Assembly: GCA_028713575.1 (NCBI GenBank)
Contig: JAQTOB010000017.1
Location: 1-7,251 of the forward strand
Direction of reading: 5' to 3'
DNA from: Patescibacteria group bacterium
GTDB taxonomy: Bacteria > Patescibacteriota > Patescibacteriia > UBA2591 > UBA6264
DNA length: 7,251 nt
In this document: one piece after another, positions 374-6,866 of the stretch
How the letters are laid out: each line of letters begins with the position of its first letter
How positions within the stretch are numbered: position 1 is the first letter of the stretch
Notes under the pieces: generated by a model
The model's database searches: none
Told to the model about the DNA's origin: nothing
What the model saw: only the letters and a program-made list of their open reading frames with translations
Translations under genes and position numbers: made by a program

Positions 374-1558
374 TTAAGTTAAAATCTTATTATCCAATGC
401 TTTTATAATTCTTTTTGCACTTTTCCCATCCCAGTATTTTGGGATTTTTGACTTTTTTTGCTTGCCGGAGAGAATTTTATCGGTTTCTTTCAGAATTTTA
501 CGCCGATTATGGCCGCAGAGAACGTTTGTTCCCTGAGTTATGGTAATCGGCCTTTCGGTGTTTTCACGGATTGTCAGGCAAGGGACGCTTAATGACGTTG
601 TTTCTTGTTGAATGCCGCCGCTGTCGGTAATGAGCAGGCAAGCGTTTATCATCAAGCAAACCGTTTCTAAATAAGAAAGAGGAGATGTTAAAACGATATT
701 TTTATTTTTTAATTTATTATTTAAACCAAATTCTTTGATTCTGTTTTTTGTTCTTGGATGAATGGGGAAAATAATCGGCAATTTTTGAGAAATGATGTTA
801 AACGTTTCCAAAAGTGAGGTTAAAATTTTTTTATCATCAACATTACTTGGTCGGTGCATAGTGAGAAATGCATATTGTTTCGGTTTTAAATCAAATTGTT
901 TTAATAGTTTGTGTTTTTTATTTTTTATTTTTGATTTTTGATTTTTTAGGCTGTCAACCATAATATCGCCCACGAAGAATATTTTTTTCTTATTTATACC
1001 TTCTTTAATTAGATTTTTATTCGCTTCATATTCGGTGATAAACAAATAATCGGAAACATGGTCGGTTAAAATACGGTTAATTTCTTCCGGCATAGACATA
1101 TCTTTGGAGCGCAGGCCGGCTTCGATATGGGCGACTTTGATATGCAGTTTGGCGGCCGTCAGGGCGCAGGCCAAAGTGGCATTAACGTCGCCGACGACGA
1201 TGACTAAATCAGGTTTTTCCTTTAAACAAACCTTTTCAAATTCAATCATTGTTTTGCCGGTTTGTTCGCCATGCAGGCCGGCCTTGACACCGAGGTTGTA
1301 ATCAGGTTTGGGGATATTTAATTCTTTGAAAAAAGAGCCGGACATCTGGTAATCGTAATGTTGGCCGGTATGGACCAATTTATAGGTAATCGGGTATTTG
1401 GTTAATTGGGTAATCGGGCGGTTTTTAGTTAAACGGCGCGAAGATTTTTTTAAAAGATGACGGCTAATTTTATTAACTCTTTTTATTTCCGCAATCAGGG
1501 GAGAGATTTTCATGAAGTTGGGTCTCGCCGCGGCTACGATGATAAACTTTTTAGTCAT
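374..1558 (-). CDS. wecB: UDP-N-acetylglucosamine 2-epimerase (non-hydrolysing), WecB family
   Basis: Hallmark motifs are visible in the translation: KFIIVAAARPNFMKISPLI (N-terminal Rossmann strand), HTGQHYDYQMSGSFFKELNIPKPDYNLGV, KPDLVIVVGDVNATLACALTAAKLHIKVAHIEAGLRS, MPEEINRILTDHVSDYLF and TDSGGIQQE. I chose the start at ATG 1556-1558 (MTKKFIIV...). The 13 extra codons in the ORF track (to 1597) run through the GIY-YIG 3' end and inverted repeat and have no family counterpart. Confidence 0.9.
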   Translation of the reverse strand: MTKKFIIVAAARPNFMKISPLIAEIKRVNKISRHLLKKSSRRLTKNRPITQLTKYPITYKLVHTGQHYDYQMSGSFFKELNIPKPDYNLGVKAGLHGEQTGKTMIEFEKVCLKEKPDLVIVVGDVNATLACALTAAKLHIKVAHIEAGLRSKDMSMPEEINRILTDHVSDYLFITEYEANKNLIKEGINKKKIFFVGDIMVDSLKNQKSKIKNKKHKLLKQFDLKPKQYAFLTMHRPSNVDDKKILTSLLETFNIISQKLPIIFPIHPRTKNRIKEFGLNNKLKNKNIVLTSPLSYLETVCLMINACLLITDSGGIQQETTSLSVPCLTIRENTERPITITQGTNVLCGHNRRKILKETDKILSGKQKKSKIPKYWDGKSAKRIIKALDNKILT

Positions 1559-1584
1559 ATATTTATTATTAAGGCGACCTTCAT

Positions 1585-1824
1585 TCACCCCGCACATTCT
1601 ATGCTATTTTTAATTCTGTTTTTGAGTTCTTGGTATGCCTTGCCAAAATATTTCAAATGTTTTTCTCTTTGCCGAGATTCGTTTTCTGATGAAAATGCTT
1701 CATAGTAGACCAAAGAGTAAGGTTTTTGTTTTTGATGTTCGGCAAGCCTCCTTTTTAGGTTGTTTGTGGACCCAATATATAGTTTCTTATTAATTTTGTT
1801 TTTAAGGATATATGTGTAATACAT
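1585..1824 (-). CDS. Small stand-alone GIY-YIG nuclease-domain protein (COG2827/UPF0213-like), 79 aa
   Basis: The translation MYYTYILKNKINKKLYIGSTNNLKRRLAEH...LVYYEAFSSENESRQREKHLK shows the GIY (YTYIL) and YIG (LYIGST) strands, the conserved Arg (KRRLxEH), and the Glu-containing helix (ExxRQREKxLK). I chose the start at ATG 1822-1824. The upstream 17 codons in the ORF track read out of frame through the wecB-like stub. Confidence 0.85.
   Translation of the reverse strand: MYYTYILKNKINKKLYIGSTNNLKRRLAEHQKQKPYSLVYYEAFSSENESRQREKHLKYFGKAYQELKNRIKNSIECAG
1587..1600. repeat. Left arm of a 14-bp perfect inverted repeat flanking the GIY-YIG ORF (ACCCCGCACATTCT on the + strand)
   Basis: The reverse complement of 1836-1849 (AGAATGTGCGGGGT) is identical to 1587-1600. 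An imperfect extension pairs 1572-1586 with 1850-1866. This arm overlaps the last GIY-YIG codons (TGT GCG GGG TGA). Confidence 0.85.
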
Positions 1825-1828
1825 GATA

Positions 1829-1900
1829 TTAATTAAGAATGTGCGGGGTAAAGTTAGGTCTTGCCGCCGCGACAATGATGAATTTTTTTTGTTTTTTCAC
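1829..1900 (-). pseudogene. Duplicated or remnant wecB 5' end: a 23-codon stub, (GTG)KKQKKFIIVAAARPNF-TPHILN-stop
   Basis: Minus-strand codons 1888->1850 encode KKFIIVAAARPNF, identical in protein to wecB codons 3-15 (1552->1514). 31/39 nt are identical and all 8 differences are synonymous third positions. The frame then leaves wecB homology at the inverted-repeat boundary and stops at TAA 1829-1831. Confidence 0.55.
1836..1849. repeat. Right arm of the 14-bp perfect inverted repeat flanking the GIY-YIG ORF
   Basis: AGAATGTGCGGGGT lies 11 nt upstream (minus-strand sense) of the GIY-YIG ATG. It abuts the wecB-like stub exactly where stub/wecB homology ends (1849/1850). Confidence 0.85.
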
Positions 1901-2825: not shown

Positions 2826-3449
2826 CTAGTCCTTAATTTGTTCTTTGATTATGTTTGTTAATTTTAACATTGCGGAAGATTGAATTTTTTGATTAGGGAT
2901 TTTTTTAACCCATTCTTTTGCTTTTTTAAAACTGAAATTTTTAGGAAAGCGCAATTCCGGGAAATATGAGAATTGTTTTTTTTTGTATCCGGCAAGGTAG
3001 AGGCAGTCCGCCAAGGCCTTTTCTGGTTCGGCAATAAGAAAACCTTTTTCATTTTTATACCAGTTAAATCCATGAAAAAACTTCGGTGTTATTTGATGGA
3101 GAGAAAAGGTTCCCAATTTAGTGACGATTGTTTTTGTGTGTCCGGTTGAGGCCAACGTTATTACTTGGGGTATTTGTTCAATAATGCCGTAAAGATGCAG
3201 GGCGCTTATAAACGAGAGATAACATCGGCGCAGGGGAAATAAAAAGGGGATAAGAATATAAGGACTTAATGGTTTATCAGTTATCTCGGCCCAAATTCCT
3301 TTATAGATTTTTAAAACTACCCCCTGTTTTTGGAGATAATTAAGAGATTGGGTTGTATTTGACAATGATTTTTTAGAGATGGTGGATAATTCCGCGGTGC
3401 TGAAAATGGGTTGATTTATTTTTTTGATAAAGTTTAAAATTGACGTCAT
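2826..3449 (-). CDS. abiEi: AbiEi-like winged-HTH protein (type IV TA antitoxin / COG5340-type regulator), module 1
   Basis: The N-terminal wHTH-like segment is FSTAELSTISKKSLSNTTQSLNYLQKQGVVLKIYKGIW. The C-terminal domain motifs are YLSFISALHLYGIIEQIP and FLIAEPEKALADCLYL, shared with the partial paralogue at 6863-7251. Its ATG overlaps the TGA of the upstream nucleotidyltransferase gene (ATGA, 3446-3449). Confidence 0.75.
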   Translation of the reverse strand: MTSILNFIKKINQPIFSTAELSTISKKSLSNTTQSLNYLQKQGVVLKIYKGIWAEITDKPLSPYILIPFLFPLRRCYLSFISALHLYGIIEQIPQVITLASTGHTKTIVTKLGTFSLHQITPKFFHGFNWYKNEKGFLIAEPEKALADCLYLAGYKKKQFSYFPELRFPKNFSFKKAKEWVKKIPNQKIQSSAMLKLTNIIKEQIKD

Positions 3450-4237
3450 TTTTTTAATTCTTCTAAAAAATTAATTGTTTTTAATTTGATTTCGTCCCAG
3501 GTGGAAGGAGAATTATATATTTTCTGGTCTTCTTTTAGGAGATAAGAAACGACCTTATCCTTAAATTCTTCAAAACCGGTTTCAAGAATATACTCCTCGG
3601 CCTTTTTTATTTTTCCCGGATTTAAGCTGATTTTTTTTCTATCACCTGATTCAATCTGAGGAATCATAATATAAATGTCGAAAATATCTCTAACCTCCAT
3701 TATTTTTCTGGTAATCAAGGCTTCTATTTTTTGCAAGACGGCAGCCATGGCGTCGTAATGGGGGACCAACAGCGGCGCTGCTTTATATTCATGCAAAATG
3801 GCGTTTGACACAGTTTCAATTTTAATTTTATTTCCGCTTAAGATTGGTGATTGCCGGCGGGAGAATTCGATTTTTGTGAAGAAATCTTCAGACCGAGGGG
3901 TGACGAGATGAATCTTAAATCTTTGAGTGGTTTGCGTTTGTTTTGCCTTTTCCATATTCGGAGGAATTATTTTTTCTATACCGAACGGTTTAAGGTTGTT
4001 TTGGAAAATGTTGGATTCCAGAATCCACATAACCTTATTTCTTAGAACGTCCGTTCGGATGATTTGGACATCTAAATCCATATCCTCGGAATAGCGAATA
4101 CTTTTATAGAAAAAACGCAAATTCACTCCTCCCTTGAGAGCGTAATAACTTGGATTTACTTTTTTACCCAACCATCTTAAAAATTCAAGGTGAAAGATTT
4201 CCACTAATTGTAAGGGGTTGTAATTCTTATAGTTCAT
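3446..4237 (-). CDS. abiEii: Nucleotidyltransferase AbiEii/AbiGii toxin family (DUF1814), module 1
   Basis: Family signature: LKGGVNLRFFYKSIRYSEDMDLDV (KGGxxLR...RxSxDxDxxV), IEFSRR, and the C-terminal KIEALITRKIMEVRDIFDIY (R-x-RD-x-F/Y-DI). It is paralogous to 6096-6866. Confidence 0.85.
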   Translation of the reverse strand: MNYKNYNPLQLVEIFHLEFLRWLGKKVNPSYYALKGGVNLRFFYKSIRYSEDMDLDVQIIRTDVLRNKVMWILESNIFQNNLKPFGIEKIIPPNMEKAKQTQTTQRFKIHLVTPRSEDFFTKIEFSRRQSPILSGNKIKIETVSNAILHEYKAAPLLVPHYDAMAAVLQKIEALITRKIMEVRDIFDIYIMIPQIESGDRKKISLNPGKIKKAEEYILETGFEEFKDKVVSYLLKEDQKIYNSPSTWDEIKLKTINFLEELKK

Positions 4238-4349: not shown

Positions 4350-4400
4350 TTTGGAGACCAAGTCTCCAAAAACTTGGAGACCTGGTCTCCAAACTTTTTT
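4350..4400. terminator. Second copy of the type A tandem hairpins (terminator of the HTH gene)
   Basis: TTTGGAGAC-caa-GTCTCCAAA followed by (A)ACTTGGAGACC-t-GGTCTCCAAACTTTTTT. 4350-4410 matches 2774-2834 with 3 mismatches in 61 bp by my hand alignment. It overlaps the stop of the HTH gene (4399). Confidence 0.7.
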
Positions 4401-4644
4401 ACCAGTCCTTGATTCTTTTTTTCGTTTTTTCTTTTATTTCGCGATAAATTTTTTGTGCTTCTTTTTCCAGAACAGGGGAGATTAAACGCAAAATTTCCGC
4501 GCCCAAGATGCGGTATTGACCGCCGACTTTATTGGCGCGGATTAGTCCCTTTTTTAGCCAGCGTTTAATTGTGCTTTTGCTAATTTTAAGAAAATCCCGG
4601 GTTTCTTCCGTGGTATAAACATTGTTTGGTTTTATCTCTTGCAT
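4399..4644 (-). CDS. Small helix-turn-helix DNA-binding protein, excisionase/MerR-like (HTH_17-type)
   Basis: VYTTEETRDFLKISKSTIKRWLKKGLIRANKVGGQYRILGAEILRLI matches the pattern of excisionase-family HTH domains (xxTxxEaaxxLgvSrsTiyrwxkxGxlxaxKvGgxxRixxxxl). 81 aa with a basic C-terminal tail. Confidence 0.8.
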   Translation of the reverse strand: MQEIKPNNVYTTEETRDFLKISKSTIKRWLKKGLIRANKVGGQYRILGAEILRLISPVLEKEAQKIYREIKEKTKKRIKDW

Positions 4645-4709: not shown

Positions 4710-4740
4710 AAAAGTTTGGTGGCTCGGCCACCAAACTTTT
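4710..4740. repeat. Type B palindromic hairpin AAAAGTTTGGTGGC-tcg-GCCACCAAACTTTT
   Basis: 14-bp perfect arms with a 3-nt loop. It is flanked by an A-run and a T-run, giving a terminator-like shape in both directions. An extra half-site CCCAAACTTTTT lies at 4771-4782. It shares its 10-bp base with the type A hairpins. Confidence 0.65.
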
Positions 4741-6034: not shown

Positions 6035-6073
6035 AAAAGTTTGGTGGCTCGGCCACCAAACCCAAACTTTTTT
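6035..6073 (-). terminator. Second copy of the type B hairpin, acting as terminator of AbiE module 2
   Basis: AAAAGTTTGGTGGC-tcg-GCCACCAAAC followed by CCAAACTTTTTT. On the minus strand the 10-bp stem is followed by TTTTTT, 22 nt after the AbiEii-2 stop (6096). The first 27 nt are identical to 4710-4736. Confidence 0.7.
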
Positions 6074-6095: not shown

Positions 6096-6866
6096 TTATA
6101 AATTAAGTTTTTGTTCAAGATATCTTTTAAGATAATCAAATAATTTTCCCAACCCACTTCTTTCATTTACGGGGACAAAAGGACGAATATCTAGTATAAA
6201 ATCTTTTTTTGAGAAGTTTTTAATTTTTTTTAAAACATCGTCTTTATTTAATTCTAGATTATAATATTTCAGCTTTTTATTTATTAGCCCTTTATCTAGC
6301 TCAACATTTTGATTTAAAAGATACCAAATATCGTAAAAATCTCTTCCTTTTGTCTTTTTTCTAGTTAAGAGCGCTCTAATTTTTTCTGCTAAAATTTCTT
6401 TTTTTGATAGATTATAGATATAAGAGGTAAACAGGACAGGATAATCCGTATTAATAATTGATTTTTGAGGGTCCATTATTTTTTCTCTAAATGAAAAATC
6501 AAGGCAGACCAGTATTTTATTAGAAAAGAGGGGAGAATTGTTTTTTAATAAAAAGGATTTACCAGCCAGCGTTTTTTTGGGTTTAAATGTTACAGACTCT
6601 TTTTTTTCTATTTTTTTAAAAAGAATTGATATGAATTTGTCAAAGTCTTTTTCTTTTATCTCAACAGTAAAGTCAAGGTCTTCTGAAAAACGGGGGGAAT
6701 TATAAATTAGGCGAAGAGCGGTTCCTCCTTTAAAAAATATTTTTTCGCTATTTTTTTCCGAATATAATTCATTTAAGAAAAATAATTGTAAATATTCCCT
6801 TAAAATTACTGATTCATTAATTTTATGTTTTTTCGCTAAAATATATATTTGTTCTTCAGTAATCAT
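6096..6866 (-). CDS. abiEii: Nucleotidyltransferase AbiEii/AbiGii toxin family (DUF1814), module 2
   Basis: IFFKGGTALRLIYNSPRFSEDLDFTV, LDFSFRE, and AEKIRALLTRKKTKGRDFYDIWYL give the same motif set as module 1, but the sequences are strongly diverged. Its ATG overlaps the TGA of the upstream gene (ATGA, 6863-6866). Confidence 0.85.
   Translation of the reverse strand: MITEEQIYILAKKHKINESVILREYLQLFFLNELYSEKNSEKIFFKGGTALRLIYNSPRFSEDLDFTVEIKEKDFDKFISILFKKIEKKESVTFKPKKTLAGKSFLLKNNSPLFSNKILVCLDFSFREKIMDPQKSIINTDYPVLFTSYIYNLSKKEILAEKIRALLTRKKTKGRDFYDIWYLLNQNVELDKGLINKKLKYYNLELNKDDVLKKIKNFSKKDFILDIRPFVPVNERSGLGKLFDYLKRYLEQKLNL

Follow-up and report, generated by a model that had tools for sequence, protein, structure and literature searches.

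A GIY-YIG gene between hairpin arms at the wecB locus

The contig JAQTOB010000017.1 of a Patescibacteria group bacterium (assembly GCA_028713575.1), analysed here over its whole length of 7,251 nt (the window), carries on its minus strand wecB, a UDP-GlcNAc 2-epimerase gene that is preceded by an incomplete second copy of its own 5' end (the stub), and between the two lies a small open reading frame (ORF) for a GIY-YIG nuclease, bracketed by the arms of an inverted repeat (IR) (Table 1). The hairpin unit, from arm to arm, together with 2 nt that follow it is called element E; the parts of wecB before and behind the site of E are referred to as exon 1 and exon 2, and loci and proteins of other genomes are cited by numbers with the prefixes L and P. 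Past position 1850 the stub ORF runs into E, where it gains the residues TPHILN before ending at a TAA (1831-1829), and the ATG of the nuclease gene follows 4 nt further on. At the other end, the terminal GA of E completes the nuclease TGA. Codons 3-15 of the intact wecB (1552-1514) repeat the stub codons at 1888-1850, and the site in this intact copy that corresponds to the insertion point reads AGACCCAACTTCATGAAAATCTCT. The wecB product is 100% identical to P0046, a protein from a Patescibacteria metagenome-assembled genome (MAG) at NCBI; an exact-protein look-up of the GIY-YIG product returned no match, in a search that also missed the wecB product, present as P0046.

A first-pass annotation, made from the window alone, had described most of this arrangement, and its coordinates, the 14-nt IR, the 13 codons shared by the two 5' ends and the eight silent differences between them were all reproduced on re-reading and alignment. 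Two boundaries had to be moved: the unit, placed there at 1587-1849, spans 1585-1849 once the last two bases of the stop codon (GA) are included, and the homology to wecB, said to end at 1849/1850, resumes beyond the element in the 12-nt exon-2 remnant.

Table 1. Features of the wecB locus in the window, in the order in which they are read.
Feature	Position	Strand	Description
Stub ORF	1900-1829	minus	wecB exon-1 relic, codons 1-17, GTG...AAC TTT (1900-1850), encoding VKKQKKFIIVAAARPNF
Element E	1849-1585	minus	265 bp: left arm, 11-nt spacer, GIY-YIG ORF, right arm and GA
Left hairpin arm ACCCCGCACATTCT	1849-1836	minus	Reaches 1852 if the TTT of the last stub codon is counted
GIY-YIG nuclease gene	1824-1585	minus	79 amino acids (aa), single domain; Pfam PF01541, E = 1.4e-13
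Right hairpin arm AGAATGTGCGGGGT	1600-1587	minus	Exact reverse complement of the left arm; overlaps the last nuclease codons (ECAG-stop)
Exon-2 remnant ATGAAGGTCGCC (MKVA)	1584-1573	minus	12 nt, the first 4 codons past the insertion site in uninterrupted wecB
Nine-codon mini-ORF MKVALIINI	1584-1555	minus	ATG directly after the nuclease TGA; own TGA overlaps the wecB ATG (ATGA)
AT-rich 14-nt leader TTAATAATAAATAT	1572-1559	minus	Precedes intact wecB; similar to the native wecB upstream sequence in L206
Intact wecB	1558-374	minus	Non-hydrolysing UDP-GlcNAc 2-epimerase, 394 aa; PF02350, E = 2e-109; TIGR00236, 328 bits

Filled, empty and decayed wecB alleles

Comparison of the window with the contigs of close nuclease homologues yielded seven distinct filled wecB loci, in all of which E occupies the same position, after AAY TTT and before ATR AAA. 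In the window, L002/L005, L001/L006 and L211 the 5' end is duplicated: a stub is followed by E, by a remnant of 12-15 nt encoding MKVA or IKIAP, by 9-17 AT-rich bases and by a complete wecB with its own ATG, and the stubs of L005, L001 and L211, too, have an intact start codon. This layout recurs in four independent assemblies from different projects, with diverged sequences and colinear junctions. L003 and L004 contain a single wecB split by E (...CVVGARPNF, E, IKISPLLQELKK...), with the frame open to the contig end, and in L210 the split gene has decayed, an internal deletion behind E leaving only a 103-aa ORF. Uninterrupted wecB genes, reading AATTTTATGAAAATCGCC or AATTTTATAAAAATA, are present in L205, L206 and L207, the first of which comes from the same MAG as the filled L001.

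Alignment of the filled sites (AAYTTT, E, ATR AAA) with their empty counterparts in these three loci (AATTTTATGAAA or AATTTTATAAAA; site sequence AGACCTAACTTTATGAAAATCGCC) sets the bounds of E at ACCCCGCAC...GTGCGGGGTGA, with a length of 256-283 bp, and reveals no target duplication at the wecB site. The remnant of the window matches ATGAAAATCGCC of the empty L206 at 10 of 12 positions. The IR-bounded unit is thus a discrete insertion after wecB codon 17, as the first-pass annotation had proposed, and the empty-site alleles that such an insertion implies exist in relatives.

Between L003 and L004 the element shows no difference in 256 nt, whereas the flanking exons differ at 13 of 309 positions (4/54 in exon 1, 9/255 in exon 2) and the sequences upstream of wecB are unrelated; had E diverged at the rate of the exons, it should show about 11 differences. 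E is therefore younger than its flanks at these two loci, which indicates recent movement and argues that E is mobile and horizontally spread. For the window and L005 the identity of E is 90% and that of the start of the intact wecB about 80%, with silent sites saturated; the L001 element is closest to the split-type element of L003 (82%), and in L211 the 7 nt before both start codons agree (TAAATAT).

The hairpin arms

With one mismatch, the perfect IR of 14 nt lengthens to 17 bp (TTTACCCC.../...GGGGTGAA); the mismatch of the DNA arms becomes a G-U pair on folding as RNA. Since 6.5% of dinucleotide shuffles of the window also contain a perfect IR of 14 nt or more, separated by a gap of 20-400 nt, the repeat taken alone is only modestly unusual for such AT-rich DNA. 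We accept it as real because the same arms bracket the same ORF in the six other loci and show compensatory changes there: the window has ACATTCT/AGAATGT, L003 ACCTTTT/AAAAGGT and L211 ACCTTCT/AGAAGGT. These changes, which affect positions 10 and 13 of the left arm in L001, L003 and L211, occur although the right arm encodes the C-terminus of the nuclease. Moreover, the right-arm motif AAGGTGCGGGGTGA is translated in two different frames among homologues, ending in GAG and a stop in one and reading KVRGE in the other; its conservation therefore lies at the level of the nucleic acid and not of the protein. In the predicted fold of the region the arms form the closing stem (z = -4.8 for RNA, -3.5 for DNA). 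An additional outer helix, GACCU/AGGUC, that would pair the stub with the remnant was dropped as a candidate, being not conserved in L005. At the level of sequence we regard as established the anatomy of the locus, the filled, empty and decayed wecB alleles, the younger age of E relative to its flanks, the purifying selection on the nuclease and the covariation of the hairpin arms throughout the family described below.

No further copy of the hairpin motif was found elsewhere in the window; relatives have solo hairpins, in the wecB genes of L003 and L004, in L017 and in L066. The one in wecB is an ORF-less hairpin of 33 nt (CCCCGCACCGAACTCGTTCTGGTGCAGGG) that lies in frame (L003, ~1795-1830; L004, ~1085-1120) and is translated as ..HAPHRTRSGAGF. 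Its site corresponds to ~1290-1300 of the window; it is absent there and from P0062, and it resembles a Rickettsia palindromic element.

The nuclease

The Pfam GIY-YIG match covers residues 1-58 of the 79-aa protein, and an AlphaFold model (predicted local distance difference test score 93) comprises the catalytic fold only, with three strands, a helix, a strand and a helix in the GIY-YIG-type topology. In structure and sequence the protein is most similar to UPF0213 BH0048 (1zg2), the I-TevI catalytic domain (1ln0) and Slx1, and BH0048 is the closest solved relative (E = 1e-6). Neither Pfam nor the model contains a separate DNA-binding domain. With its one domain the protein lies well below the 150 aa that delimit the single-domain GIY-YIG proteins grouped as Ssn nucleases, described as 94-aa proteins that cut single-stranded DNA (ssDNA) beside a hairpin repeat (Chenal et al., 2025; PMC11893778). 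In the copies associated with wecB the ratio of non-synonymous to synonymous substitution rates (dN/dS) of the nuclease ORF is 0.05-0.13; the nuclease is under purifying selection and appears to be functional.

A Pfam scan of the window proteins found no transposase domain, and an Rfam search of the region with E values up to 10 returned only noise and no ribozyme family. Introns of groups I and II were rejected on this ground and on that of space, because 240 of the 265 nt of E are taken by the ORF, which leaves no room for a catalytic core; the degraded wecB behind E in L210 and the intact second 5' end of all diverged lineages likewise speak against an intron.

Two 5' ends that differ at silent sites

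Over the 13 codons shared by the stub and the intact gene of the window, all 8 differences in 39 nt are silent third-position changes (proportion of synonymous differences, pS, 0.875; of non-synonymous differences, pN, 0). Under the assumption that about one quarter of substitutions are silent, eight silent changes out of eight would have a probability of ~4e-5, a rough estimate and not a computed value. The corresponding figures are pS 0.865 and pN 0.144 in L005, and pS 0.556 and pN 0.083 in L001. Silent sites are saturated with few or no replacements, and the duplication can therefore not be a recent in-place event with one copy decaying, which also disposes of a recent target-site duplication, as had been argued from the window. 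A single ancient duplication followed by neutral decay of the stub is ruled out by the same eight silent and no replacement differences, and is further disfavoured by the stubs being closer to the intact copy of their own genome than to other stubs. The pattern suggests that recombination with a diverged wecB allele, and not recent copying in place, supplied the second 5' end; two options would account for it, such an origin from a diverged allele or a stub that is still constrained, as a homology arm or a launcher of translation.

A family of hairpin GIY-YIG elements at gene starts

In genomes of the Candidate Phyla Radiation (CPR), small GIY-YIG genes rank with the most frequent hypothetical genes and are usually annotated as static, and the first-pass annotation had called a cassette-like insertion of one unusual. 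We scanned one genome per species with the nuclease alignment and obtained 80 loci, nearly all in CPR MAGs. A bracketing IR surrounds the small GIY-YIG ORF at 58 of 84 distinct loci, compared with 1.7% of random control positions; the element is thus no oddity of wecB but part of a large family, with members at the starts of many genes. The repeats are near-perfect and 12-30 bp long, the median unit measures 306 bp, and the outer part of the arm has a conserved core, (A)CCC[CG]CAC[AC]C, while the inner 8-14 bases vary yet stay complementary. In some elements, those of wecB included, the nuclease stop codon overlaps the outer end of the right arm. A long ORF on the same strand starts between -6 and +30 nt from the right arm in 18 of the 58 elements (3/58 in the mirrored control), and 15 of these 18 starts fall within -5 to +8 nt. 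The elements thus appear to target gene starts and to be built for read-through, abutting start codons and supplying a Shine-Dalgarno-like sequence. E is, on these comparisons, one copy of what appears to be a family of selfish mini-elements of 250-330 bp, common in CPR/Patescibacteria. The hairpin GIY-YIG family is large, sits in the first codons of genes and is largely undescribed.

Intragenic members interrupt a GvpL/F-like gene between MEA and KYIFG (L007), dnaE between MKF and THLHVHS (L015) and a pilin-like gene between MRGF and IALITVF (L049, 2985-3268). Direct repeats of 2-3 nt (TT, AA, TAA) are present, inconsistently, at some of the sites outside wecB. For dnaE both a split and a duplicated state were found. 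In L015 the element (801-1092) follows MKF and there is no duplicate; in L017 (2985-3275) an MGKF stub, the element, a THLH remnant of ~12-14 nt and a solo hairpin precede a complete dnaE starting MSQQFTHLHTHS. At both loci the dnaE frame is open from an ATG within the element and across its right arm, the L015 frame reading MESSKKESSTVSTPHKSGGGF-THLH..., and because this ATG is in the dnaE frame the element may supply a new N-terminus in L015.

Several other members were seen in distinctive settings. In L175 (4261-4545) the element stands after ATG CCT AAC TTC (MPNF) of a host gene, with TC on both sides, so that the insertion follows codon 4 and an ..AAC TTC motif, as in wecB. This locus was the one real element among the matches listed in a metagenome scan with the pattern CCNAAYTTYACCCCGCAC, the others being almost all due to chance, and a two-arm pattern run against viral contigs gave two chance matches only. 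In L212 the element (2988-3252) lies exactly between the stop codon of gspE, the type II secretion ATPase gene, and the ATG of gspF, with TAA at both element ends and the three ORFs chained without gaps. Several members adjoin tRNA genes (L053, L060, L056, L062, L067 and L083); in L056 the outer right arm (GCGGGTAT) also serves as the 5' end of the tRNA, and the arm core GTGCGGGGT is similar to a tRNA acceptor stem.

An exhaustive search of 1.84 billion representative proteins returned 1324 relatives of the nuclease at E values up to 0.001. About 36 of the best 150, roughly a quarter, measure 190-514 aa and have the nuclease domain in residues 1-80, in frame with a further domain, and in nine of the ten fusions scanned with Pfam a type IV pilin N-terminal methylation motif lies right behind this domain (pilin or pseudopilin fusions P0172, P0173, P0187, P0194, P0198, P0216, P0267, P0268 and P0282). 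The junction reads ...SGAG/FTL(I/V)E... in the five fusions that were read: the right-arm DNA GGTGCGGGGT plus TT is translated as G-A-G-F, and the element thereby recreates the G/F site of prepilin peptidase. In such fusions the nuclease would form a giant pilin leader that is afterwards cut off. A literature search found no paper describing GIY-YIG/pilin fusions. Because pilin fusions carry GGGG-TTT at the position where the wecB elements have GGGG-TGA, the terminal GA of the latter is best read as a former TT.

Insertion, rescue and movement: a model and its alternatives

Taking these observations together, we think it probable, with room for doubt, that E is a selfish element, translated in line with its host, that sits in a relic of wecB, and that the host gene was rescued by a second 5' end. 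E would have entered wecB between F17 and M18 without target duplication. The insertion would displace 17 residues, and because these include the first beta-strand and the ARP phosphate-binding loop, whose arginine contacts the UDP phosphates in the Escherichia coli enzyme, the interrupted copy should be dead. The decay in L210, the recent arrival of E in L003 and L004 and the presence of an intact second 5' end beside every old, diverged E lineage agree with such an inactivation. The copy that was hit would persist as a relic made of the 17-codon stub, the element and the 4-codon remnant; WecB would be produced from the complete gene that starts 14 nt past the remnant, and the second 5' end would represent a rescue of the host gene, probably a recurrent outcome. 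A relic 5' fragment together with a regenerated gene recurs at wecB and dnaE, and tandem 5' duplications of this origin are liable to be misread by annotation pipelines and pseudogene callers.

As to expression, in all seven wecB loci the end of the exon-1 ORF falls in an interval from 5 nt before to ~25 nt after the GIY-YIG ATG, E has no obvious ribosome-binding sequence upstream of this ATG, and the only promoter-like match in E is at chance level (3 found, 2.6 expected). Translation may run in line through a chain of closely spaced ORFs, from the stub stop 4 nt before the nuclease ATG, through the junction of the nuclease TGA with the mini-ORF ATG, to the overlap of the mini-ORF TGA with the wecB ATG. 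Judged by this spacing, translational coupling of the nuclease to the stub is plausible, as is a termination/re-initiation relay from the stub to wecB. By analogy with the Ssn nucleases, the enzyme would recognise the hairpin of its own arms in ssDNA, and nicking at the hairpin would promote copying of the element into homologous empty sites.

A broader proposal, which we put forward tentatively, is that the hairpin GIY-YIG units are autonomous mobile elements whose sole protein is an Ssn-type ssDNA nuclease, and so form a new class of bacterial mobile DNA. Under this proposal the units would persist in the first codons of host genes through in-line translation, achieved by ORF coupling in the window, by an N-terminus that the element supplies in dnaE of L015, or by a giant pilin leader that is cleaved at the recreated prepilin-peptidase site; lethal hits would be resolved by regenerating the 5' end of the host gene, and stub and remnant would be selected as homology arms.

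Some points weigh against insertion followed by rescue. The apparently single dnaE of L015 is interrupted, which fits poorly with simple inactivation. The stub keeps its start codon and conserved amino acids in all four duplicated lineages, which is odd for a dead relic, except in the case of young stubs or of selection on them as homology arms or translation launchers. The constant length of the remnant, 12-15 nt, hints at an underlying mechanism; near-constant at wecB and comparable at dnaE, it would fit breakage at a set distance from the hairpin. Finally, the sample is small, with seven wecB loci and short stretches of comparable sequence.

An alternative that we consider unlikely is that E is a cassette that brings its own replacement 5' end, such that element, remnant, leader and new exon 1 arrived together and the resident 5' end was left as the stub. 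Divergence at silent sites only would be expected if both ends had worked until the transfer; the amino acids of the stubs go with the clade of the host, being AAA for the window and L005 and xGA for L001 and L211, and the stubs of the window and L005 are well conserved only in the 13 nt beside the element, like a co-conversion tract. A precedent exists in the mitochondria of Allomyces fungi, where a mobile endonuclease ORF carries a foreign atp6 3' end. However, L003, L004 and L210 have the element without a duplicate, and of the gene-end-replacing cassette envisaged in the first-pass annotation the insertion stands while the second 5' end as an obligatory part of it does not. Against a common arrival, too, the new exon 1 is no more similar between the window and L005 than the rest of wecB (~80%, against 90% for the element), the element of L001 is nearest to one of the split type, and the heptanucleotide in front of both start codons of L211 suggests duplication in place.

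The strong purifying selection on the nuclease and the maintenance of the arrangement in four lineages could instead reflect a domesticated module, which would exert an Ssn-like control over incoming ssDNA or act as an RNA switch that sets wecB translation, with the stub as a regulatory leader. From their sequences the right arm is Shine-Dalgarno-like and the left arm anti-Shine-Dalgarno-like, and in the predicted folds the stem would couple downstream translation to that of the nuclease; in Neisseria, Ssn modulates transformation (PMC11893778). We nonetheless regard domestication as rather improbable, given that the module is absent from close wecB relatives, that an identical element in diverged flanks points to recent movement, that the family is spread over unrelated genes and that the interrupted wecB has decayed in L210.

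It is more doubtful still that the interrupted genes are functional and that E is an intervening sequence, bypassed either by removal from the mRNA (cuts at the hairpin base and ligation) or by ribosome skipping. Removing the element plus 2 nt does restore the frame in wecB (L003), dnaE (L015) and the GvpL/F-like gene (L007), an offset that a staggered stem cut of the RNase III type would be expected to leave; the interrupted dnaE of L015 is an essential gene, and the GIY-YIG-encoding insertions of CPR rRNA genes belong to neither intron group (PMC11270868). But the region matches no Rfam family and the ORF leaves no space for a ribozyme, the wecB gene behind the element has decayed in L210, and an intact second copy is present in all long-lived wecB lineages. 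Another explanation serves for the 2 extra nt, as a 2-nt target duplication (TT, AA) at the other sites and as the mutated end of a former TTT in wecB, where, moreover, the take-off and landing codons are mismatched. Ribosome hopping between matched codons was rejected on this last point: it fits L015 (TTT/TTT) and L007 (AAA/AAA), where 2-nt target duplications explain the matches equally well, and fails at wecB (TTT versus TGA).

An assembly chimera, in which the reads of two strains were joined in a short metagenome-assembled contig of 7.25 kb, has a negligible probability given the same architecture in four independent assemblies and an analogous one at dnaE, and the artefact considered in the first-pass annotation is thereby excluded.

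Relation to known systems

The closest known system, as judged by its published description, is that of the Ssn nucleases (cd10448). The ssn genes are flanked by SRM/NTS hairpin repeats (NTS-ssnA-NTS), each protein having its own co-evolving repeat, and Rickettsia is named among the SRM-rich genomes; the authors note an architecture like that of insertion sequences (IS), with mobility not demonstrated and left open (PMC11893778). Shared features are a single GIY-YIG domain of ~80-95 aa without a DNA-binding domain and repeats that co-evolve with the protein; the IRs on both sides of the gene are comparable in part, and so are the solo hairpins, scattered in genomes and also found in frame within genes, of which the L003 wecB has a 33-nt example. 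The two differ in layout, since the gene here lies inside one hairpin whose arms are ~235 nt apart, whereas an ssn gene lies between two complete hairpins, a form that some relatives of E also have (e.g. L038); in the repeat core, CCC[CG]CAC here and TTCCCGCG for Ssn; and in that the elements described here are site-specific in first codons, translated in line and accompanied by duplication of the host 5' end. They also differ in the evidence for mobility, which is comparative here and absent from the Ssn paper: alleles in the filled, the empty and the decayed state, together with an element that is younger than the sequence around it, argue that Ssn-type units move. With dozens of co-varying arms, the nuclease/hairpin pairs are a ready source of candidate ssDNA nucleases with sequence specificity.

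Homing endonucleases of the GIY-YIG type, free-standing or intron-encoded (I-TevI, Seg proteins), likewise combine a GIY-YIG domain with filled and empty alleles at a conserved coding site, are more conserved than their flanks and leave no target duplication. E, by contrast, has no intron, has terminal hairpin arms and breaks the host gene; its nuclease has no DNA-binding domain, and target recognition must therefore differ. With IS200/IS605 and with repetitive extragenic palindromic (REP) sequences and their RAYT transposases the elements share a mobility that, here probably, depends on ssDNA hairpins, the absence of target duplication, insertion beside a short specific sequence (here after a T-run) and solo palindromic repeats, but they use a hydrolytic GIY-YIG nuclease and not an HUH transposase, and their arms pair with each other instead of forming two subterminal hairpins. 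A conventional transposon or IS with terminal IRs was rejected, there being neither a transposase nor a target-site duplication of fixed length.

Rickettsia palindromic elements are short palindromes without an ORF that are inserted in frame and translated within protein genes. The 33-nt hairpin of the L003 and L004 wecB genes is likewise an in-frame, translated palindrome, whereas E carries a nuclease gene in its loop. The endonuclease ORFs of the Allomyces atp6 type also lie in a coding gene, where a diverged second gene end keeps the function; there, however, it is the 3' end that is duplicated and fused in frame, the setting is organellar and hairpin arms are lacking. The CPR themselves have rRNA genes with GIY-YIG-encoding insertions that fall outside intron groups I and II (PMC11270868), and these resemble the elements in host group, small GIY-YIG ORFs and separateness from both intron groups, and differ in interrupting rRNA genes and in that hairpin arms have not been reported for them.

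Other features of the window

The intact wecB of the window has a low-complexity insertion of ~25 aa (KISRHLLKKSSRRLTKNRPITQLTKYPI; window ~1385-1470, codons ~30-57) that splits its Pfam match; it is also present in P0049 and absent from most relatives, and L005 has a different sequence, derived from CTTAC repeats, at this place. A second palindromic repeat family, unrelated to the hairpin arms, has the form AAAAGTTTGG(A/T)G(A/G)CC..GG(T/C)C(T/A)CCAAACTTTT and five copies, two of them as tandem pairs (2769-2822, 4350-4398, 4710-4740 and 6035-6061). These copies lie at gene ends and bracket AbiE-like modules, and they may be terminators or REP-like elements. Two genes for AbiEii-type nucleotidyltransferase toxins are located on the minus strand within 2826-4237 and 6096-6866, an AbiEi-like antitoxin gene (2826-3449, a weak match) lies upstream of one of them, and an HTH_17 excisionase-like gene is found at 4399-4644, so that the neighbourhood is rich in defence or mobile DNA. 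The divergent neighbour, at 1940-2770 on the plus strand, encodes a staphylococcal-nuclease-like protein that is anchored in the membrane and has a 'sunset' domain (NF051437) at its C-terminus, and a related nuclease gene of this type lies near the element in L001 too.

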